DNA from: a virus
Lineage: Duplodnaviria > Heunggongvirae > Uroviricota > Caudoviricetes
Virus record (IMG/VR): IMGVR_UViG_3300038393_003162
Location: 148,407 to 212,406 of that record
Length of the DNA stretch: 64,000 nt
Direction: 5' to 3' (one strand)
Notes under the pieces: generated by a model
Seen by the model: only the letters and a program-made list of their open reading frames with translations
Databases searched by the model: none
What the model was told of the DNA's origin: nothing
Program-made: the position numbers and the translations under genes
In this document: in pieces, positions 12,160-64,000 of the stretch
Numbering within the stretch: the stretch's first letter is position 1
Layout: each line of letters begins with the position of its first letter

Positions 12160-13103
12160 TCGGACATCTCCGCTAATGCCTTCTTGACGAATTGCTTGGT
12201 CTTCGTGCGATTCATGGGCGTCTCTTTCTCGGTTATCTTAGCAATTGCCGGAGATCCCACATCTTCCCCGAAACTATAGGCGTACTCATGGGACGATAAA
12301 CATCGTGCCTCATCCTCGTTATACATCATCTCGTGCTGGCTCTCGCCCGACAATGCCACTGCCTCGATGATGTGACACGAGGAATTCTTCAATTCAAGCA
12401 ATACCTCTGCACACAATTTCATATCGACACAGCAGACATCTTTAGGACATATAAAAGTTCCCTTGGGTATCTTACCGTCCAGGAGTGCGCGTACCAGACA
12501 TTGGGCTGCTTGATTCGCGGTCATGCCGAAGCGGATCGCCGGTTTACCGTCGAAGAGCCTGAGGTGGATATCTTCCTTGCGGTCGAGCTTCTTGGTCCAG
12601 ATGGGCAATACTGACCCGTCGGAGCCAAACAAGTTGCCGAAGCGAATGGAGTGGATCTTGCCGGAAACCCGCTTGCTGTATTCCCAGACCAATCGCTCCG
12701 ACAGATACTTGCACATGCCATAGACCTGGTTTCGATGGCATGCCTTGTCGGAACTTACCAGGATCGCGTGGGTGATCTGGTCGCCTATTGCTTCAATAGC
12801 CCCTAGAACGCTCTCAGTGCCTGCCAGAACGCTCGCCACGGCGAGTGAGGGGTTTTGCTCGCAGATGTCCACGTGCTTCAGGGCAGCCGTGTGAACGACG
12901 CCTGTGATCTTGTGGGACTTCATGATGTGCTTGAGTCGTTGAGAATCTTGCACATCTCCAATTTCCCTGATACAATCAGGACAATATTTTAATTGCCTCG
13001 ATGGATCTCGACTGTATGCGACCACTTGGTGCTTACTTTCGATCAATTGCTTACAAACTGCCCGTCCTAACGTCCCCGACGCGCCCGTGACTAGGATATT
13101 CAT
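12150..13103 (-). CDS. NAD-dependent sugar epimerase/dehydratase (CapD/PseB-like, short-chain dehydrogenase/reductase family)
   Basis: N-terminal Rossmann ILVTGASGTLG; YGMCK (YxxxK); overall similarity to UDP-GlcNAc 4,6-dehydratases. Confidence 0.7.
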   Translation of the reverse strand: MNILVTGASGTLGRAVCKQLIESKHQVVAYSRDPSRQLKYCPDCIREIGDVQDSQRLKHIMKSHKITGVVHTAALKHVDICEQNPSLAVASVLAGTESVLGAIEAIGDQITHAILVSSDKACHRNQVYGMCKYLSERLVWEYSKRVSGKIHSIRFGNLFGSDGSVLPIWTKKLDRKEDIHLRLFDGKPAIRFGMTANQAAQCLVRALLDGKIPKGTFICPKDVCCVDMKLCAEVLLELKNSSCHIIEAVALSGESQHEMMYNEDEARCLSSHEYAYSFGEDVGSPAIAKITEKETPMNRTKTKQFVKKALAEMSEWM

Positions 13104-45927: not shown

Positions 45928-46025
45928 TCGCAAGATGCCGATTCGAACGGCTGCCTCCGTCTATCTATAGCGACGGTGTGCTAGGTGACGAGGCACCCGG
46001 TTTCCACCATTACACCAAACTTGCG
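45928..46025 (-). ncRNA. expanded tRNA-like RNA (98 nt)
   Basis: T-arm AGCCG-TTCGAAT-CGGCA and acceptor CGCAAGT/TCTTGCG (6 of 7 bp); extra internal hairpin CCGTC…GACGG. Confidence 0.3.
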
Positions 46026-46026
46026 A

Positions 46027-46103
46027 TGGACTGGACGAGGAATCGAACCTCGTGCGTCTTCAAGCCTTGCAACTCGAATACTCTGCCACTGAGTTACCAG
46101 TCC
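46027..46103 (-). tRNA. tRNA (77 nt), anticodon probably GCA (Cys)
   Basis: Acceptor GGACTGG/CCAGTCC, D-arm ACTC-AGTGGCA-GAGT, T-loop TTCGATT; anticodon loop TTGCAAG by hand. Confidence 0.5.
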
Positions 46104-47069: not shown

Positions 47070-47152
47070 TGGAGCAACGCGGATTCGAACCACGAACCTA
47101 TTTGGGGGGACCTGCCCTTTGCCAAATCGCTCTGCCGTTGAGCTACTGCCCC
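47070..47152 (-). tRNA. tRNA-like gene (83 nt) with enlarged anticodon arm (6-bp stem ATTTGG/CCAAAT around a 17-nt loop with an inner GGG…CCC hairpin)
   Basis: Acceptor GGGGCAG/TTGCTCC (GU pairs), canonical D-arm GCTC-AACGGCA-GAGC, T-arm CGTGG-TTCGAAT-CCGCG. Confidence 0.45.
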
Positions 47153-48354: not shown

Positions 48355-48466
48355 CATCTTTGACGGGGATCGAACCCGCATCACCGCGTACATCCCATCC
48401 ACCGGATCGACGGGATTCTAAAAGGGCAGAGGTTAAGTCCACTAGTCCGGTTTACACTACAAAGAC
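48355..48466 (-). ncRNA. expanded tRNA-like RNA (112 nt)
   Basis: T-arm GCGGG-TTCGATC-CCCGT and acceptor GTCTTTG/CAAAGAT (one GU) separated by about 100 nt with internal hairpins. Confidence 0.3.
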
Positions 48467-50518: not shown

Positions 50519-50592
50519 TCTCAGGGGAAGGATTCGAACCTTCACAAACCAAGGCACAAAACCTTAATTTGAATTCCAATTCACCCAAACAT
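50519..50592 (-). ncRNA. tRNA-like element (T-arm GAAGG-TTCGAAT-CCTTC plus 3' acceptor strand); 5' half not identified
   Basis: Perfect T-arm; anticodon-like hairpin TAAGG-TTTTGTG-CCTTG; no complementary 5' acceptor strand found. Confidence 0.3.
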
Positions 50593-57164: not shown

Positions 57165-57212
57165 CAACTCTTTCTCTTTCAAGATATAGCAGTGATTAAA
57201 ACACAAAAACAG

Positions 57213-57287
57213 ATCCGAGGGCAAGAATCGAACTTGCGATCTCCACGTTCAGAGCGTGGTGCTACGACCAACAGCAGCTACCTCGGA
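57213..57287 (-). tRNA. tRNA-Gln (anticodon CUG)
   Basis: Acceptor TCCGAGG/CCTCGGA, anticodon arm CCACG-CTCTGAA-CGTGG, T-arm GCAAG-TTCGATT-CTTGC. Confidence 0.65.
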
Positions 57288-57293
57288 ATCATA

Positions 57294-58043
57294 TTAACTT
57301 GCTTGTGACTTAAGCTTGGTCCAATATCCTCTTGTCGGCTTTTCAATGCCATATGATTTAGCCCATTTTGCCACTGCACTGTCGGAGACATCATATGTCT
57401 CGGCTATAACCATCGTTGGAATTTGCCATAACATTTTTTCTAACTCTTCTTTAGTCGGACGTTCTACCTTGCGTCGTTGAAGTTTTTCACACTTAGAACA
57501 TCGTTCAGATATTTTCAATATCTCAACATTGCAGTCTATACATTTGTTTCTTGGTTTCCTGTTTGTATTTTTGCCAGCAAATGTTTCAGTTTGAGTGTGA
57601 CAATTAGGGCACAGAAATCTAAGATTTTCTCGTCTATTATCATTCCTTATGCCATTTATATGATCCAAGGACAAAGCCAACTGATTATCTAACCAAACAG
57701 GACCTAGTCCGCATGTTTGACACTCATAAGGTATTATGCCGTCCTTAATGAGTCTTTTTCGTAAAGCATGCCGACTATAAGTCGAATTTTCTACCATCAC
57801 TTCGTCTAGTGGCACAGCATGACCAGGGAATTTTCTATTCTTATTGCTGGCTCTTCCTTGCACAATGTGCGAATGATCTATCTCATCGTGGTCAAGACGA
57901 TCTTTTAATGTGCGAATATTGCCACCAATATTATTCAATCCAAAAAAGCTCAATATATTACTATAAGTTGAACTTTTAGCAACTAATTCAGCCATATTTG
58001 ATGATGGTATTTTCCAAATAGGACTTCTTTTTTTACGACTCAT
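57294..58043 (-). CDS. HNH endonuclease
   Basis: CQTCGLGPVWL…LDHINGIRNDNRRENLRFLCPNCH plus extra CxxC pairs. Confidence 0.7.
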   Translation of the reverse strand: MSRKKRSPIWKIPSSNMAELVAKSSTYSNILSFFGLNNIGGNIRTLKDRLDHDEIDHSHIVQGRASNKNRKFPGHAVPLDEVMVENSTYSRHALRKRLIKDGIIPYECQTCGLGPVWLDNQLALSLDHINGIRNDNRRENLRFLCPNCHTQTETFAGKNTNRKPRNKCIDCNVEILKISERCSKCEKLQRRKVERPTKEELEKMLWQIPTMVIAETYDVSDSAVAKWAKSYGIEKPTRGYWTKLKSQAS

Positions 58044-58068
58044 TATTTAATCCGAATTACATTAGAAG

Positions 58069-58144
58069 TTCCGGGGGCTAGAATCGAACTAGCGACCTTC
58101 TCGTTCAAAGCGAGTTGCGGCATACCATCAGCCGCCGCCCCGGA
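58069..58144 (-). tRNA. tRNA-Gln (anticodon UUG)
   Basis: Acceptor TCCGGGG/CCCCGGA, D-arm GCGG…CCGC, anticodon loop CTTTGAA, T-arm GCTAG-TTCGATT-CTAGC. Confidence 0.6.
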
Positions 58145-58156
58145 ATTTAACTACAG

Positions 58157-58229
58157 AGCTTCCTCTCGGATTTGAACCGAGACCATCTCGTTACGGGCGA
58201 GACATTCTTGCCAGTTAAACTAAGGAAGC
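58157..58229 (-). tRNA. tRNA-Thr (anticodon CGU), C33
   Basis: Acceptor GCTTCCT/AGGAAGC, anticodon arm TCTCG-CCCGTAA-CGAGA, T-arm CTCGG-TTCAAAT-CCGAG. Confidence 0.55.
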
Positions 58230-58236
58230 ATTTGAG

Positions 58237-58346
58237 TGGACAGGGCAGGACTCGAACCTGCGACCTCTAGACGGTTGCCCGTTTTTCAAGCTATCGCCCG
58301 AAGGCGATGTTTAGTGCCCGCGCTCTTGCCGCTGAGCTACCTGTCC
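58237..58346 (-). ncRNA. expanded tRNA-like RNA (110 nt): canonical acceptor, D-arm and T-arm with a 60-nt central region holding two tetraloop hairpins
   Basis: Acceptor GGACAGG/CCTGTCC, D-arm GCTC-AGCGGCAA-GAGC, T-arm GCAGG-TTCGAGT-CCTGC; inserts ATCGCC-TTCG-GGCGAT and ACGG-GCAA-CCGT. Confidence 0.5.
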
Positions 58347-58351
58347 ATGAG

Positions 58352-58436
58352 AGATACGGGTCGGACTCGCACCGACGTGGGACTTGCGTCCGGCAGGGTT
58401 GCAGCCTGCTCCCTTCGCTACTCGGGTCACCGTATC
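58352..58436 (-). tRNA. class II tRNA (85 nt, long variable arm GGAC-GCAA-GTCC); anticodon read as GCA
   Basis: Acceptor GATACGG/CCGTATC, anticodon arm GCAGG-CTGCAAC-CCTGC, T-arm GTCGG-TGCGAGT-CCGAC; GCA is not a normal class-II anticodon. Confidence 0.45.
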
Positions 58437-58441
58437 ATTAG

Positions 58442-58512
58442 TAGGCGCGGAAGGAGTCGAGCCTTCGCCACGGCGTTATCAACACCGGATTCTTCCGTTA
58501 AACTACGCGCCT
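58442..58512 (-). tRNA. tRNA-Ile (anticodon GAU)
   Basis: Acceptor AGGCGCG/CGCGCCT, anticodon arm CGGTG-TTGATAA-CGCCG, T-loop CTCGACT. Confidence 0.5.
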
Positions 58513-58933
58513 GTCTTCTATCACATAATTCGCTGATGAAACTTATCGGTCTCATCACTCTTGCTCAAGCCCCAACTCATATTACACCACTGGTGGTTCT
58601 TAACGCCGTCCTTCTTGGTCGGCTCGGGGCAACGGCATTGCTTGCCAGGATTTCGCCCCAACAGAAGCTTACACAACTTGCTGATACAGTGTCGCATCCT
58701 TGAATCCTTTCAGAAGACAAGGTCCGCAAGACCAGTTTGAAAGCTGGACCTGTCCTGTGTATTCGGTCAATTACAGTTAACCTTCCGATTGGTTACGGCT
58801 ACCGCACAGTTAGCGGACATTGATCTAAGTAATCCGCAAAGCTTGGCGTAACCACGCCCTGTCCGAAGCAAGTCTATCATTAAGTTCTTAGCCGGTTCAC
58901 ACGGCACTTGCCCGTTAGCGGATGTTTTTGAAT

Positions 58934-59257
58934 TTACGGCAACTCGACCTTCAATTCCTCAGCAAGGGTTTGAATGAAATATTTCATATCGCTTGTATCA
59001 TAGATGCCAGTAAGGTCTTCGCGAATTTTTTCGATGTACGCCAAAAGTCCCGCTTGGTCCTTGGACGATATTTCAACAGGCATCTCAGAGCAATATTCTC
59101 CACTACAGAATGGACAATATTGGTAATCATCATCGATAGCTTTGGATTCTATCAAACATCTCTTACAGAGAATCTTCTTACAATCGTTACATTTAAACTC
59201 TTGGTCTTCGACAGAAAAAATAGATTTACATGTAAGTCGGCTACAAATACAACTCAT
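58934..59257 (-). CDS. multi-CxxC zinc-ribbon protein (107 aa)
   Basis: Four CxxC pairs in the N-terminal 50 aa. Confidence 0.45.
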   Translation of the reverse strand: MSCICSRLTCKSIFSVEDQEFKCNDCKKILCKRCLIESKAIDDDYQYCPFCSGEYCSEMPVEISSKDQAGLLAYIEKIREDLTGIYDTSDMKYFIQTLAEELKVELP

Positions 59258-59281
59258 ACAGTAATCCTCTTGTCTTTACAG

Positions 59282-59352
59282 AGCCTTCGACTAGAATCGA
59301 ACTAGTGCTACAATCTTACCGGGATCGGGGGCTACCACTACACCACGAAGGC
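59282..59352 (-). tRNA. tRNA-Thr (anticodon GGU), C33, weak D-stem
   Basis: Acceptor GCCTTCG/CGAAGGC, anticodon arm CGATC-CCGGTAA-GATTG, T-arm ACTAG-TTCGATT-CTAGT. Confidence 0.5.
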
Positions 59353-59421
59353 AAATCGGTTGCGAATTGTTTAGAATAACGATCCCCTATTGTACAGAGG
59401 ATCGTTATTGACCAAATCTAC

Positions 59422-59676
59422 TTAATCACACGGTTGGATATTGAATCGTTTTGCGAGATCAGCCGGAATCTTGGTGACATTGTAAAAATGCCTCCCCTTG
59501 ATATGGCTGAATTCTCGGGTCATGACGTAGCCTCTGTTCTGAAAATACTCAGCTACTTCAGCTACACGGTCCGAAGGCACAGCCCAATCAATCTCTTGAG
59601 GGAGCTTTCGTCCTTCCATCGCCTTGGGAAAGTCATACTCGGCCGCCGGTTCCAACTGTAATACAACATCGTTCAT
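59422..59676 (-). CDS. hypothetical protein (84 aa)
   Basis: Intact ORF. Confidence 0.35.
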   Translation of the reverse strand: MNDVVLQLEPAAEYDFPKAMEGRKLPQEIDWAVPSDRVAEVAEYFQNRGYVMTREFSHIKGRHFYNVTKIPADLAKRFNIQPCD

Positions 59677-59728
59677 TTTTTTAAAATCCGAATTTGAAAC
59701 TTAACTGCGAACATTGGGCTAGTCCGCA

Positions 59729-59803
59729 TGTGGGTACAGGGATTTGAACCCTGACAGTCTGCTTGGAGGGCAGATATGCTAGTCCGTTAAACATCACACC
59801 CAC
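59729..59803 (-). tRNA. tRNA-Gly (anticodon UCC), C33
   Basis: Acceptor GTGGGTG/TACCCAC, anticodon arm TCTGC-CCTCCAA-GCAGA, T-arm CAGGG-TTCAAAT-CCCTG. Confidence 0.55.
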
Positions 59804-59817
59804 AAATTACTATAAAA

Positions 59818-60126
59818 CTAACTCTTCAATGACCTAATCTCAAAAAAGTTATTGAATGACTCATCTTCGTCCATAAGAAGGCGAGCGTATCGACTACTGA
59901 AATGATCATTGATCTTGAATTTTCTTTCAATCGAATCCGGTCTAATTGCGTAGTGCCACCGAATTCTTTGAATAATGGCGTCTGAGCCGAAACGGTCACG
60001 ACCTGCCTGTTTTAGCTCAGACGCAAATCTTTTGAACAAAGAATAAACTTCCGGATGGTCATTGTGGTAACGCTCAAAACGTTCTTGTATGGTTGGCTTT
60101 GTAACAACCGCATTACATTCAGACAT
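59818..60126 (-). CDS. hypothetical protein (102 aa)
   Basis: Intact ORF. Confidence 0.35.
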   Translation of the reverse strand: MSECNAVVTKPTIQERFERYHNDHPEVYSLFKRFASELKQAGRDRFGSDAIIQRIRWHYAIRPDSIERKFKINDHFSSRYARLLMDEDESFNNFFEIRSLKS

Positions 60127-60250
60127 TAAGAAAATTCCTTTGAATTACACACGCATAATTTGTTGTCGGTCGCCTCTTTGCCATTTTGGCGGTATCACCC
60201 GGCGACTAGGTACTTGTCTTAAGTGACAAGGTTTTGCCAGCGACAACAAG

Positions 60251-60321
60251 AGCGGCTGGGGATAATCGAAATCCCGTATCAGCGTTGGCAACGCCGTGCT
60301 TTACCACTAAGCTACAGCCGC
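60251..60321 (-). tRNA. tRNA-Gly (anticodon GCC)
   Basis: Acceptor GCGGCTG/CAGCCGC, D-arm GCTT-AGTGGTA-AAGC, anticodon arm CGGCG-TTGCCAA-CGCTG, T-arm GGGAT-TTCGATT-ATCCC; 5' end overlaps the last codons of the next CDS by 10 nt. Confidence 0.65.
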
Positions 60322-60869
60322 ATTTTTCTTCCTACAGCTACCGTATCAGTCACCAAGCAAGGTCCATGTTGTTTGGTCCATCTCTCTTCCAGAGGAGCAA
60401 CGTTCCCCATCCAAGAAAACACATGCTCAAGACCAAAATCCTCAAACAATGCCTTGTAGCCATCCGGCAATATCCTCCAGCAATCATAGAGCGGCGAAGC
60501 ATGATACGGCCAGGAAACCGGGTTCACAAAAATGACATGTCCGCCTGGCTTCGTTATTCTAACCAATTCTTGGACCCATGTCCATATCTTTCTCACATGC
60601 TCTGCCACACTCAAACTAAACACAACATCAAACCGATTCGCTTCGACATCTATCTGGTACTCATCGATCATCCTGATAAAACCAGGTTGATGATCGGCGT
60701 TGTTGCGAATATCCGCGAAATTGTAATGACCACCATTGGCGACCACTAGGTCTTTGGATATTCCATCGGCTCTGCCGCCACCTTCTGGTCCAATCTCTAA
60801 TACAGAGGTCCCAGATTGGATGAGAGGCAAACCGTGAAGTCGAAACAATTCTAGACTGTTGTTGTGCAT
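60312..60869 (-). CDS. class I SAM-dependent methyltransferase (Methyltransf_11-like)
   Basis: LEIGPEGGGRADGI (motif I) and ITKPGGHVIFVNP. Confidence 0.55.
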   Translation of the reverse strand: MHNNSLELFRLHGLPLIQSGTSVLEIGPEGGGRADGISKDLVVANGGHYNFADIRNNADHQPGFIRMIDEYQIDVEANRFDVVFSLSVAEHVRKIWTWVQELVRITKPGGHVIFVNPVSWPYHASPLYDCWRILPDGYKALFEDFGLEHVFSWMGNVAPLEERWTKQHGPCLVTDTVAVGRKMRL

Positions 60870-60876
60870 GTTTGAG

Positions 60877-60945
60877 ACCGAGGGCGAGGACTTGCACCCC
60901 GAACTCTAGAGTACGCCAACTGTGTCTCGACTTGGCAGCCCCCGG
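60877..60945 (-). ncRNA. short tRNA-like gene (69 nt) lacking a recognisable anticodon arm
   Basis: Acceptor CCGGGGG/CCCTCGG, stem GCCA…TGGC, T-arm CGGGG-TGCAAGT-CCTCG. Confidence 0.35.
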
Positions 60946-61028
60946 ATATGTCTTTCATTCTTATATAATACCATAACCTCAGTAAAATACAAGACCTTTT
61001 TTGATATTTTCTAGGATTTATTTTACCT

Positions 61029-61127
61029 GAGAAACGTTCGGCTCACTCAAGGAAATGAATCCTTGGTCAGGCTTCGAACCTGTTACACACCTCCACAGCC
61101 TTCTCGTTTAGAAAGGTGACGTTTCTC
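61029..61127. ncRNA. structured element: 9-bp terminal stem (GAGAAACGT/ACGTTTCTC) enclosing three hairpins including a T-arm-like CAGG-CTTCGAA-CCTG
   Basis: Perfect inverted repeat closing 81 nt; internal hairpins CAAGGA-AATGAA-TCCTTG and CTTTCT-AAACG-AGAAGG; no ORF. Confidence 0.35.
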
Positions 61128-61136
61128 AGAATGAAG

Positions 61137-61213
61137 CGTACTCGGCAGGATTCGAACCTGCATATATTCCTGTTTAGAAGACAGGTGCCTAAGTCCATTC
61201 GAGCCACGAGTAC
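61137..61213 (-). tRNA. tRNA-Arg (anticodon UCU)
   Basis: Acceptor GTACTCG/CGAGTAC, anticodon arm CCTGT-CTTCTAA-ACAGG, T-arm GCAGG-TTCGAAT-CCTGC. Confidence 0.6.
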
Positions 61214-61476
61214 ATGTATTTGATATCAGTCTTCGAGAAGACACTTGAGTGCCTTAAGAAGTTCGTCCTTATCAACTCCGACTTCTCGGCTTTCATTGCC
61301 GATCTGAAAGTAAATACAATCCCTGCCTACGGACAAGATCAACTGGTCGTCGGGATAGCTGTTATCAGTATCCATCTCGATTTTAAGTCTGATTTCCATT
61401 ATTTACCTCAATACAACCATGACCCACATTTGGGACATTTTAAAAATGCCATATTTACAATTAATTTTGTAAGAAG

Positions 61477-61550
61477 TACCTCTGGCAGGACTTGAACCCG
61501 CAACCTTCTCGTTCGAAGCGAGATGCGCTAATCCATTGCGCCACAGAGGC
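61477..61550 (-). tRNA. tRNA-Arg (anticodon UCG)
   Basis: Acceptor GCCTCTG/CAGAGGT, D-arm GCGC-AATGGATTA-GCGC, anticodon arm TCTCG-CTTCGAA-CGAGA, T-loop TTCAAGT. Confidence 0.65.
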
Positions 61551-61557
61551 AAAATAA

Positions 61558-61630
61558 TACCCCCACCAAGAATTGAACTTGGTCTTGAAAGCTAGGAACT
61601 TTCCGTGCGATTCCGGCACACTCTGGGGGC
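61558..61630 (-). tRNA. tRNA-Arg (anticodon CCU)
   Basis: Acceptor GCCCCCA/TGGGGGT, anticodon arm GAAAG-TTCCTAG-CTTTC, T-arm CCAAG-TTCAATT-CTTGG. Confidence 0.65.
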
Positions 61631-61636
61631 AAGCAT

Positions 61637-61933
61637 TCAATCCCGTTCATCTTCTTCGAGTGGTCTTTTCACCTTCACCCGGATCTTGTTCCCCAGGTCA
61701 TCATAATGATAAACGTATGACCAGCCCGTCTTGTAGAAGTCCGTATCGATGAAACAAGCATTGGTCATACCGATGAATCGCCAATGGTCGCGGATATCCG
61801 GAGGAATATAGGTCTTCTTCCCATTTTCGTAGAAGTCAATGCTCTCGAAATCAAGAGCATTGATCTTCCTCAACTCTTCCTTGAGATACCTGATATGTTC
61901 GATATCGACTCGATTCCGTATTTCTTGCGACAT
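61637..61933 (-). CDS. hypothetical protein (98 aa)
   Basis: Intact ORF. Confidence 0.4.
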   Translation of the reverse strand: MSQEIRNRVDIEHIRYLKEELRKINALDFESIDFYENGKKTYIPPDIRDHWRFIGMTNACFIDTDFYKTGWSYVYHYDDLGNKIRVKVKRPLEEDERD

Positions 61934-62011
61934 CAGCTTTCCTCATCGCACATACAACCTAAGAGACAAATCGTAAACACACATAGACCAGCCATGATAA
62001 AAAACCACATA

Positions 62012-62461
62012 TTACATTCCTTTATACCTTTTGCTCTTTGCCAACTGTTGTTTTGCTTTTTCCAGGTCGGCATTCTTCATGAACTGCCAGTTGGGGTAAG
62101 GTTCTCGTCTTGTATAGACGCCGTTTTGCTGGTAGTCCGATTGCGGGTGAGATGTGAACATCTGGACGCCTTCGGGCAACTGCTTCTCCATTGCTGCGGA
62201 GAGCGTCTCAAAATCTTCTAGGACCAAATTTTGGCGAGGGTCGATGATGACCAAGGCTTGCGATTCGGTTAAAAGCCATGGAATGATTATATCCAATACT
62301 GGCTGCGTGTTTAGTTCTTTGACTACATAGGTTAATTTTCCTTCAAGCCGTGCCTTCTTGGCGAAAGGGCATACGGGCAAGTTGCCGAATGCCGGATGTG
62401 GCTTTTCGACGAAAGAGATCAAATGGTTTTTCATTATCTGAATAATATCATGATGTTCCAT
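62012..62461 (-). CDS. hypothetical protein (149 aa)
   Basis: Intact ORF. Confidence 0.4.
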   Translation of the reverse strand: MEHHDIIQIMKNHLISFVEKPHPAFGNLPVCPFAKKARLEGKLTYVVKELNTQPVLDIIIPWLLTESQALVIIDPRQNLVLEDFETLSAAMEKQLPEGVQMFTSHPQSDYQQNGVYTRREPYPNWQFMKNADLEKAKQQLAKSKRYKGM

Positions 62462-62499
62462 GTCTATATCAATGATTTAAAGATGGAATTTTATCACAG

Positions 62500-62573
62500 T
62501 AATCGTGGCAAGAGTCGAACTTGCGACCTCCAGGTTCGCCGCCTGGCGCTCTAATCCACTGAGCTACACGATC
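62500..62573 (-). tRNA. tRNA (74 nt); anticodon loop CGGCGAA (G33), anticodon read as GCG (Arg?)
   Basis: Acceptor GATCGTG/CACGATT, canonical D-arm GCTC-AGTGGATTA-GAGC, stem CCAGG/CCTGG, T-arm GCAAG-TTCGACT-CTTGC. Confidence 0.5.
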
Positions 62574-62583
62574 AAATTATAAG

Positions 62584-62654
62584 TAGGCGTAGAAGGTCTT
62601 GCACCTTCACCGGCACCGTTATAAGCAGTGAGTGCTACTTTACACCATACGCCC
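62584..62654 (-). tRNA. tRNA-Ile (anticodon UAU)
   Basis: Acceptor GGGCGTA/TACGCCT, anticodon arm CACTG-CTTATAA-CGGTG, T-arm GAAGG-TGCAAGA-CCTTC. Confidence 0.5.
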
Positions 62655-62701
62655 AAATCAAATTCCTATAATCTTTTAAGCAAAGAGTAGTCATCACAAC
62701 T

Positions 62702-62725
62702 GCTCTCCCACTGAGCTAACCGCCC
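62702..62725 (-). pseudogene. tRNA 5' fragment (acceptor strand GGGCGGT plus canonical D-arm TAGCTCAGTGGGAGAGC) with no T-arm or 3' acceptor
   Basis: Clean 5' half followed by unrelated sequence until the next tRNA. Confidence 0.4.
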
Positions 62726-62731
62726 ATTTGA

Positions 62732-63070
62732 CTACTTGTCTTCCACTTTGTATTGCTTTTTCTCGGCGGCTGTCATTTCATAAGTGTGCTTGGGCAAGCC
62801 CTCGCAACACACCTTGGACTTAGGCTTGGTTCGTTCCTCAAGCTTTGCGACCGTCTGCTGGAGCGTCTTGATCTCGGCATCGTGTATGGTGTCACGCAGA
62901 CTGCCGAGTAAGGAGACAACAACGATCAACAGAAAGGCAATGTCTCTCACAAGTTCATCAAACGTATAGGTCATAATTTGGTCCTTTAAGCTTTTTTGTG
63001 GCTTCGCACCACGAATCGCCTGAGTAGGTTGTAGTGGGACATGTTCTCGTACACGAGACCCTTGAGCCAA
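62732..63070 (-). CDS. membrane protein (112 aa)
   Basis: TM segment IAFLLIVVVSLLGSL. Confidence 0.4.
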   Translation of the reverse strand: MAQGSRVREHVPLQPTQAIRGAKPQKSLKDQIMTYTFDELVRDIAFLLIVVVSLLGSLRDTIHDAEIKTLQQTVAKLEERTKPKSKVCCEGLPKHTYEMTAAEKKQYKVEDK

Positions 63071-63288
63071 CGCCGCTTCATGCCTTCTTGCTCGATCTGC
63101 TTCACGAGTCGCTTTTCGAGGTCGAAGAGTTCCTTGCGGACGAGGGACATCAACTCCGCTTGGGAGGCATCGACAGCCTGCTTGACCTGGTCCTCGGTGA
63201 AAGTGACGGTCTCTGGCTTGAGGTCGTTGGTGATGTCGGTTGCGAGGCTGAAATCACTATTGGTCAGAGTGACATCCTTGTCGCTCAT
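62986..63288 (-). CDS. hypothetical protein (100 aa)
   Basis: Overlaps the downstream gene by 85 nt. Confidence 0.3.
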   Translation of the reverse strand: MSDKDVTLTNSDFSLATDITNDLKPETVTFTEDQVKQAVDASQAELMSLVRKELFDLEKRLVKQIEQEGMKRRWLKGLVYENMSHYNLLRRFVVRSHKKA

Positions 63289-63309
63289 GATCGTCCTCCC
63301 TGAAGGGTG

Positions 63310-63465
63310 TTATATATCTAGTCTTTCCACAGACAACACCGTGTTGTTCCGCTCGATCGATTCGATGTGGCGATAGACTTCGGTCCAGTCTTCTGCCACA
63401 AACTCGTAATCATCGGTCTCAAAGAACTCGGATGTATCGATACGATATCTGATGCGGAATCTCAT
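63310..63465 (-). CDS. small acidic hypothetical protein (51 aa)
   Basis: Hand-translated MRFRIRYRIDTSEFFETDDYEFVAEDWTEVYRHIESIERNNTVLSVERLDI*; below the ORF-track length cutoff. Confidence 0.3.
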   Translation of the reverse strand: MRFRIRYRIDTSEFFETDDYEFVAEDWTEVYRHIESIERNNTVLSVERLDI

Positions 63466-63470
63466 GTAAG

Positions 63471-63545
63471 TACCTCCGGAAGGATTCGAACCTTCTCCAG
63501 CCGGGTAAGAACCGGATATGCTAGACCGTTAAACACCACGGAGGC
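63471..63545 (-). tRNA. tRNA-Lys (anticodon CUU)
   Basis: Acceptor GCCTCCG/CGGAGGT, stem CCGG/CCGG around loop TTCTTAC, T-arm GAAGG-TTCGAAT-CCTTC. Confidence 0.55.
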
Positions 63546-63749
63546 AATTAGTCAGACTAATTATTTCTGCTTCGTACAAGAACAGTGCGACTTACAGCAC
63601 GAATTAGCGGTTGAGTGCCTGCGTGTATTGCTTTCACTCTGTGCTATCAGTCCTAGAAACAGAATCAGCAAAATCCCCAACAGAAGTGCTATGCCTGTTC
63701 CTTTGATTTCAGGCCCATTCGTTGCTCCTCTCAAAATTATTTATCTCAG

Positions 63750-63822
63750 TCCCTCCTCTCGGCCACGATCCGAGACCTAACGGTTTAAAAGACCGCCGCT
63801 CTGCCAATTGAGCTAAAGAGGG
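63750..63822 (-). tRNA. tRNA-Lys (anticodon UUU) with non-canonical T-loop ATCGTGG
   Basis: Acceptor CCCTCTT/AGGAGGG, canonical D-arm GCTC-AATTGGCA-GAGC, anticodon arm GCGGT-CTTTTAA-ACCGT. Confidence 0.55.
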
Positions 63823-63830
63823 AATTTATA

Positions 63831-64000
63831 CTACTTCTTGTTGAGCCATGTATTGATGTGTTCGCCAACACACCCGATCATGCCACCTACCAAACCTGAC
63901 AGGGGTAACACCCACCAGTGATCGCCTAAAACATGTCCCAGCCCGTAGCCGGTAAGGAACCCCACGATCATCACCACAATCAAGATGACCAAACTTCTCA
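63831..64000 (-). CDS. membrane protein, 3' part only (gene continues past the window end)
   Basis: Open minus-strand frame from 64000 to TAG at 63831-63833; hydrophobic sequence …VILIVVMIVGFLTGYGLGHVLGDHWWVLPLSGLVGGMIG…. Confidence 0.35.
   Translation of the reverse strand, partial: RSLVILIVVMIVGFLTGYGLGHVLGDHWWVLPLSGLVGGMIGCVGEHINTWLNKK

Follow-up and report, generated by a model that had tools for sequence, protein, structure and literature searches.

The 103-nt element on the minus strand at 61027-61129 of the 64,000-nt stretch of phage DNA analyzed here (the window) is neither a tRNA nor a permuted tRNA, and it is not among the Y RNAs of the phage, which adjoin the gene for Ro60. We favor, with middling confidence, the reading that it is a lineage-specific, probably tRNA-derived structured spacer, which at most would act in cis as a processing or boundary structure. 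This reading is supported by the following: (i) a canonical T-arm lies on the tRNA-bearing strand, 7 nt after tRNA-Arg(UCU); (ii) of 44 orphan T-arms this one alone is enclosed by a perfect 11-bp stem, and the fold of the whole element has z = -3.5; and (iii) ARAGORN, Rfam and a covariance model of YrlA RNAs place the element in no working family. Among the tRNA-like elements known from phage tRNA clusters it is an orphan variant.

Genomic context

The window comes from a phage genome of ~585 kb that is present in JGI and Logan metagenomes. An earlier note on this DNA had brought up Ro60, and a Ro60 homolog is indeed encoded in the window (37570-39192; PF25045, E = 1e-16); other products of the phage are Thg1, PTH2, a GatB-like protein and HNH endonucleases. 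ARAGORN finds 24 tRNAs in the window and Rfam 18, all on the minus strand, and the large array to which they belong continues beyond the window end. Around the element the order is Ile(UAU), Arg(GCG), Arg(CCU), Arg(UCG), Arg(UCU), the element, a methyltransferase gene, Gly(GCC) and Gly(UCC). The last of the four tRNA-Arg genes, tRNA-Arg(UCU) (61136-61213, minus strand; ARAGORN and Rfam), ends 6-7 nt upstream of the element, the RNA 5' end of which would be 61129. Two ORFs, 61067-61207 and 61083-61244, overlap tRNA-Arg and are mechanical ORF calls.

ORFs and tRNAs are closely interleaved on one strand. The methyltransferase ORF ends (...AUG CGG CUG UAG, 60312-60321, minus strand) in overlap with GCGGCUGUAGCU, the 5' end of tRNA-Gly(GCC), and if this tRNA is excised from a shared transcript the methyltransferase mRNA would lose its stop codon. 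Given the interleaving and a methyltransferase stop that lies inside tRNA-Gly(GCC), processing at tRNA-like folds is plausible. In L007, one of the loci with a homologous methyltransferase gene, that gene begins 2 nt after a real tRNA-Asp. The 266-nt spacer that holds the element also holds a second degenerate tRNA-like fold (60876-60955, minus strand), in which an acceptor-like stem of 8 bp (CCGGGGGC/GCCCUCGG) is combined with a D-like arm and with CGGGG-UGCAAGU-CCUCG, which resembles a T-arm; this fold ends ~6 nt ahead of the methyltransferase start codon at 60869. Its presence in the same spacer fits local turnover of tRNA genes.

Several other tRNA-like genes or orphan T-arms in the window are missed by ARAGORN, all of them on the minus strand (39937-40013, 45935-46021, 48360-48462, 50527-50543 and 58237-58346). 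The last of these is a 110-nt Rfam tRNA match (46.8 bits) with an insertion, and those at 45935-46021 and 48360-48462 are of extra length, with acceptor-like ends that match. The related phage L032 has many orphans of this kind (10770, 11023, 11170, 11219, 12036 and 13909). ARAGORN also calls tRNAs with four-base anticodons at 46027-46103 (gcaa) and 47070-47152 (aaag), both on the minus strand, which implies enlarged anticodon loops; Rfam backs the former (39.8 bits) and not the latter. At 3632-3925 of L007, a non-coding stretch of ~290 nt between tRNA-Ala and tRNA-Asp has complementary ends (UGUCGUGU/CACACGACA) and a T-arm (GTGGGTTCGAGTCCCAC) near its 3' end, a tmRNA-like layout for which ARAGORN makes no call.

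Structure of the element

The earlier note described a 99-nt element in which a perfect 9-bp terminal stem closes three internal hairpins. Both arms of that stem, GAGAAACGT (61029-61037) and ACGTTTCTC (61119-61127), are in the window and the hairpins are present, and the perfect inverted repeat is longer than was claimed: it comprises 11 bp (CTGAGAAACGT/ACGTTTCTCAG), with 61027-61037 pairing with 61119-61129. On the minus strand the 5' strand of this closing stem, P1, is CUGAGAAACGU (61119-61129) and its 3' strand is ACGUUUCUCAG (61027-61037). The 11-mer occurs once in the window, with no second site, and the idea that it is a repeated operator-like site was rejected because no repeat was found there.

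For both strands the predicted fold is a closing stem that encloses three hairpins. The minus-strand fold has an energy of -36.9 kcal/mol (z = -3.5) for the 103-nt element and of -32.7 kcal/mol (z = -2.4) for the 99-nt version, and z for the plus strand is -1.55. We read the element on the minus strand because it folds better there, because all tRNAs of the window are on that strand and because tRNA-Arg(UCU) is 7 nt away. The closing stem is retained when the whole spacer of ~270 nt is folded. The inner 81 nt taken alone gave z = -1.2, and 29 of 200 shuffles folded equally well; the internal hairpins are therefore not beyond chance in energetic terms.

On the minus strand the parts follow one another as closing stem, hairpin, T-arm, an abutting 8-bp hairpin and a 7-nt junction; numbered from 61127 as position 1, the first hairpin occupies positions 10-40, the T-arm 45-61 and the closed hairpin 61-83. 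The first hairpin (61088-61118), which is in the 'V' position, has in the minimum-energy fold a CACCUUU/GGAGGUG stem of five Watson-Crick and two G-U pairs and a 17-nt loop, and between P1 and this hairpin there is no linker. Five unpaired bases separate it from the T-arm, A-CAGG-UUCGAAG-CCUG-A (61067-61083, minus strand; motif scan), which has a 4-bp stem, an A-A mismatch at the fifth pair and a canonical T-loop with G53, U54 U55 C56 G57 A58 and C61 in place. The T-arm mimic of the earlier note is thus a real hairpin but was written on the wrong strand, since the plus-strand loop, CUUCGAA, is not a T-loop. Directly abutting the T-arm is a closed, acceptor-like hairpin, CCAAGGA-UUCAUU-UCCUUGAG in the minimum-energy fold (61045-61066, minus strand), which can be written as ACCAAGGA-UUCAUU-UCCUUGAGU and has up to 8 bp, counting the preceding A, and one bulge. 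The junction GAGCCGA (61038-61044, minus strand) is single-stranded in the fold. A scan for intrinsic terminators found none at the element, where the stem has an interior of 81 nt and GUAAAAUAAA comes next, with no U-tract; likewise, no recognised processing signal was found at the element.

A 9-bp stem is by itself unremarkable, since perfect 9-bp inverted repeats with spans of 40-130 nt number 59 in the window and ~24 in shuffles. Repeats that reach 11 bp are rarer (6 of the 59; ~1.5 expected per 64 kb from shuffles). As calculated from motif probabilities, ~0.005 T-arm motifs of comparable quality are expected in the 266-nt spacer, a figure that agrees with the roughly 3 chance matches in the motif scan. 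The set of orphan T-arms consists of 44 motifs, the element's included, which lie outside ARAGORN tRNAs in the phage and its relatives; for all of the others the best enclosing perfect stem is 5-8 bp.

Comparison with tRNAs

ARAGORN reported no tRNA at the element with default, mitochondrial or tmRNA settings. With the intron option there was none at the default threshold and only low-confidence, spurious calls at a relaxed one; all 99 circular permutations of the element were negative at the relaxed threshold, and ~6,000 single-deletion variants (1-69 nt removed) gave no tRNA. Rfam, run over the element and spacer, returned nothing relevant at the gathering threshold or at E <= 10, and the cloverleaf of the tRNA family (RF00005) was not found. 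The plus strand was also considered as an anticodon arm like that of tRNA-Arg(UCG) (loop CUUCGAA), a reading that was dropped because other arms are missing, because ARAGORN is negative on both strands and also because every gene here is on the minus strand.

Several stretches of the element recall its neighbors: (i) its T-arm matches that of tRNA-Arg(UCU) over 15 nt with one mismatch; (ii) the first hairpin contains UUCUAAAC, which is also in the tRNA-Arg(UCU) anticodon loop; (iii) the same hairpin matches the anticodon-stem/variable-loop/T-stem region of tRNA-Arg(UCG) at 14 of 16 nt; and (iv) the UUCAUU loop recurs in the spacer behind tRNA-Arg(UCU). A tandem tRNA copy that underwent rearrangement would fit these hints. 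Against all 110 tRNAs and in shuffles that preserve the T-arm, however, the 14/16 match to tRNA-Arg(UCG) and the 8-mer match to tRNA-Arg(UCU) lie within the null distribution (p = 0.27 and 0.13), and neither is significant once multiple comparisons are corrected for. As similarity outside the T-arm is not significant, the case for tRNA ancestry rests on the T-arm and its location, and it is from these that we infer such an ancestry for the remaining parts.

Comparison with Y RNAs

YrlA RNAs as described (PMC4201824) are encoded next to Ro60, carry GNCGAAN0-1G on their 5' strand and comprise a variable hairpin, a T stem-loop, and acceptor-like and D stem-loops. In the phiLo study (PMC12135203) CGAA is found in the 5' strand of a stem-bulge-stem. 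The Y-RNA-like architecture proposed in the earlier note is borne out to the extent that the element is a stem-closed module with a T-arm (CAGG-UUCGAAG-CCUG, minus strand, with the tRNA-like conserved bases) and that its V, T and acceptor-like hairpins, read on the minus strand, are ordered as in YrlA; membership in the family fails. Some 22 kb separate the element from the Ro60 gene and ~24 kb from the Y RNAs of the phage, which are beside that gene. Neither GNCGAAN0-1G nor CGAA is present on its 5' strand, and there is no bulged helix. A stretch that fits GNCGAANG does occur (GCCGAACG, 61035-61042), yet it sits on the 3' side of the element, and on reading the element sequence we found no UU(N)CGGC partner for it; the window has 50 copies of the GNCGAAN0-1G motif where 40 are expected. 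In place of a D stem-loop, only the 7 unpaired nt GAGCCGA follow the 8-bp hairpin. As some genuine units beside Ro60 (L027_U3 and L028_U5) likewise have no D-arm, its absence alone is not decisive.

Rfam 15 reports no Y-RNA family in the window, and none beside the Ro60 genes of phages Myrna and Mx1, which served as a positive control. Because it is blank beside the Myrna Ro60 gene, a negative from Rfam is uninformative on YrlA membership, and we therefore built a YrlA covariance model of our own. In the bacterial Ro60 loci L027-L029, tandem YrlA units lie directly downstream of Ro60 and carry, as signatures, GGCGAAUG, ACUACAU, a T-arm, an acceptor-like hairpin, a D-arm and CUUGUCGCC; eight of these Ro60-adjacent units (alignment A2) make up the model, R2. 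It scored 45.3 bits on an unseen bacterial locus, L026, and matched three stretches just downstream of the phage Ro60 gene, at 36315-36382 (25.5 bits), 36454-36587 (21.0 bits) and 36655-36724 (15.6 bits). Its best score within 60960-61140 is 1.5 bits. The comparison with Y-RNA models that the earlier note had called for thus gives no support for membership. Its suggestion of a second Ro60 ligand is not supported, given this score, the absence of a 5' CGAA and of a D-arm, the distance of 22 kb and the absence of the element from Ro60-bearing relatives described below.

The YrlA-type units beside the phage Ro60 gene form a tandem array (36315-37100, minus strand) with T-arms at 36389, 36521, 36729 and 36942 and with repeated CUUGUC, GAAUA and UACAU signatures, all of which ARAGORN and Rfam miss. 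Some of the units appear to follow the order of a tRNA and to have a D-arm and an acceptor stem that is open. Relatives have similar arrays (L015, ~12600-13100; L019, ~12250-12500; L023, ~12000). In phage Myrna (L024), two Y-like RNAs can be seen by eye upstream of the Ro60 gene (~2090-2340), neither of which Rfam 15 reports; one has a terminal stem (GUGAGGCGG/CCGCCUCAC) with GCCGAACG right behind the 5' strand, and the other is stem-closed, with a T-arm and no D-arm.

Occurrence in related phages

Two relatives found through a DUF1415 protein, L030 and L032, have syntenic tRNA arrays with the same order as in the window. Both keep Arg(UCG), Arg(UCU), an ORF and Gly(GCC) in succession, with 48 and 62 nt between Arg(UCU) and an ORF that differs from the one in the window, and the element is absent from the orthologous site in both. 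The slot after Arg(UCU) is thus occupied by different cargo in each phage, and the element is lineage-specific. The amino-acid order of the array as a whole (57212-63822 of the window, L012 1-10000, L030 and L032) is kept though the proteins are only ~50-70% identical, and the small ORFs between the array tRNAs vary from phage to phage, as in variable cargo slots.

Loci with homologs of the methyltransferase (L006-L011, 57-64% identity) showed no synteny and no element. The element was not found in loci with Ro60 homologs either (L015-L023, 60-73% identity), and relatives that retain Ro60 and the Y-RNA array are without it. Megablast of 58000-64000 against GenBank phages gave no match, and four exact or gapped pattern scans of IMG/VR gave nothing. 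A 20-mer scan of JGI metagenomes gave five unrelated loci and also missed the source contig, and is hence a weak negative. A covariance model made from the single sequence (R1) matched the element alone in the loci searched, and no second copy or paralog is present in 74 kb of the source genome (the window and L012).

The element is identical in all fetched contigs of the phage that span it, from several samples, and all eight closely related contigs match the window at 100% identity; contigs that are identical throughout make population variation and covariation uninformative. Two short contigs of the same phage, L002 and L003 (JGI and Logan assemblies, possibly of the same reads), both stop at 61040, inside the element, which could reflect low coverage or a hidden variant at that point.

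Discussion

We infer that the element would be co-transcribed with the tRNA-Arg block and that, in the resulting RNA, the 11-bp closing stem would stack on the first hairpin, to be followed by the T-arm stacked on the closed 8-bp hairpin. Such an RNA would have no anticodon function and would not be a Y RNA; most likely it would be a rearranged or decayed tRNA-like unit. If functional, it may act in cis as a compact structure by which the junction of the tRNA block with the methyltransferase gene is marked or protected, possibly as an exonuclease stop or as a site for tRNA-processing or double-strand-specific RNases. Among the observations that count against this explanation are that the element has no U-tract or recognised processing signal, that its inner hairpins fold no better than shuffles and that its similarity to Arg tRNAs outside the T-arm is not significant.

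The element resembles YrlA and YrlB RNAs (PMC4201824; phiLo Yrl1/2, PMC12135203) in having a terminal 5'-3' stem around a tRNA-like module, the order variable hairpin, T-arm and closed acceptor-like stem-loop, a canonical T-loop, a T-arm stacked directly on the next hairpin, and a Ro60 gene in the same genome. Unlike them it lacks the 5' CGAA motif, the bulged Ro60-binding helix and the D-arm, and it also lacks the UACAU and CUUGUCG signatures of the clade's real YrlA units; its distance from Ro60, its low model score and its absence from relatives set it apart as well. With the tRNA pseudogenes or remnants of phage arrays it shares array position and strand, a canonical T-arm, short matches to tRNA-Arg and the lack of a cloverleaf, but its hairpins are not in tRNA order, and decayed tRNAs normally lack a perfect 11-bp closing stem such as it has. 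That this stem is perfect and free of wobble pairs is unlike neutral decay and suggests selection or a very recent origin. The tRNA cluster of phage T4 encodes stable small structured RNAs of unknown function that are co-transcribed and processed with the tRNAs; they are expressed and are conserved among T4-like phages. The element, which has no known transcript or homolog, can be likened to these RNAs by description only. In the permuted tRNA genes of Cyanidioschyzon merolae, a T-arm is followed by the 3' strand of the acceptor stem, a short linker and the complementary 5' strand. The succession of T-arm, strand, short linker and complementary strand is the same in the element; however, it has no D-arm, no anticodon arm and no splicing endonuclease context, and its permutations were negative with ARAGORN.

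Other explanations of the element as an RNA have to be weighed. We think it unlikely that it is a trans-acting tRNA mimic, that is, a T-loop/minihelix RNA freed from the tRNA precursor that would bind Ro60 or a tRNA-binding factor or would decoy tRNA-targeting enzymes. Consistent with such a role are the YrlA order of closing stem, V, T and closed acceptor-like hairpin on the minus strand, the D-arm-less units adjoining Ro60 in L027 and L028, the stem-closed T-arm RNA that adjoins Ro60 in mycobacteriophage Myrna, the presence of Ro60, Thg1, PTH2 and a GatB-like protein in this phage and the outlying length of the stem; moreover, the loose criterion applied to the Yrl RNAs of phiLo, a bulge with CGAA enclosed by a 5'-3' stem (PMC12135203), would admit the element. 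Against it, the stem of the element has CGAA on the wrong strand, the motif is of chance frequency, the YrlA model gives 1.5 bits, no paralogs were found, the true Y-RNA array is beside a Ro60 gene 22 kb away and relatives that keep Ro60 are without the element. We see only a slight chance that the element is the founder of a new class of phage tRNA mimics, which would be stem-closed RNAs with a T-loop/minihelix 'elbow' and loops that resemble the anticodon loops of tRNA-Arg(UCU) (UUCUAAAC) and tRNA-Arg(UCG) (UUCGAA), released from the tRNA-Arg precursor as decoys for host nucleases that target tRNA-Arg or as a second, non-canonical Ro60 ligand. A functional tRNA of unusual make (permuted, split or intron-containing), perhaps the tRNA-Arg(CCG) that is missing from this phage, is barely credible. 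The element does lie at the end of the Arg block, its T-arm leads into a 7-nt strand, a 6-nt linker and a complementary strand as in permuted tRNA genes, and other tRNA-like genes here escape ARAGORN; the related phage L030 has an Arg(CCG) gene, but at a different position in the array. The permutations, the deletions, the intron option at its default threshold and the Rfam tRNA model at E <= 10 were all negative, and the element has neither a D-arm nor a 7-nt anticodon loop with a properly placed U33.

The remaining explanations do without any RNA function. A palindrome-bounded insertion at the DNA level, MITE-like or created by template switching, would account for perfect 11-bp terminal inverted repeats that flank 81 nt, for the insertion-like appearance relative to L030 and L032 and for a slot with varying gene content. 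We nevertheless regard it as very doubtful: no direct duplication flanks the element, 74 kb of the genome contain no second copy, the IMG/VR scans were empty, the metagenome 20-mer scan, a weaker negative because it left the source contig unrecovered, gave only five unrelated loci, and the T-arm is oriented with the tRNA array. It is quite improbable, in our view, that an inverted repeat and a T-arm-like hairpin have merely coincided, with neither tRNA ancestry nor function, since a T-arm (~0.005 expected) and an 11-bp stem (~1.5 expected per 64 kb) are jointly unlikely, since none of the 43 other orphan T-arms is enclosed by such a stem and since both strand and position match the tRNA array. 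What speaks for coincidence is that 9-bp inverted repeats are common, that the interior folds like shuffles, that similarity to the neighboring tRNAs is not significant and that no conservation was found.

The useful result is mostly negative, in that the element is probably not a Ro60 ligand. There is a positive by-product, namely that the real Y RNAs of the phage are a tandem array by the Ro60 gene that both Rfam and ARAGORN miss. As for the tRNA array, related phages share its amino-acid order, and the tRNAs are separated by gene slots of varying content. If the element is functional, it would mean that the tRNA arrays of megaphages generate new tRNA-mimic RNAs outside the Ro60/Y-RNA system, and it would add to the evidence for huge phages manipulating host RNA metabolism.
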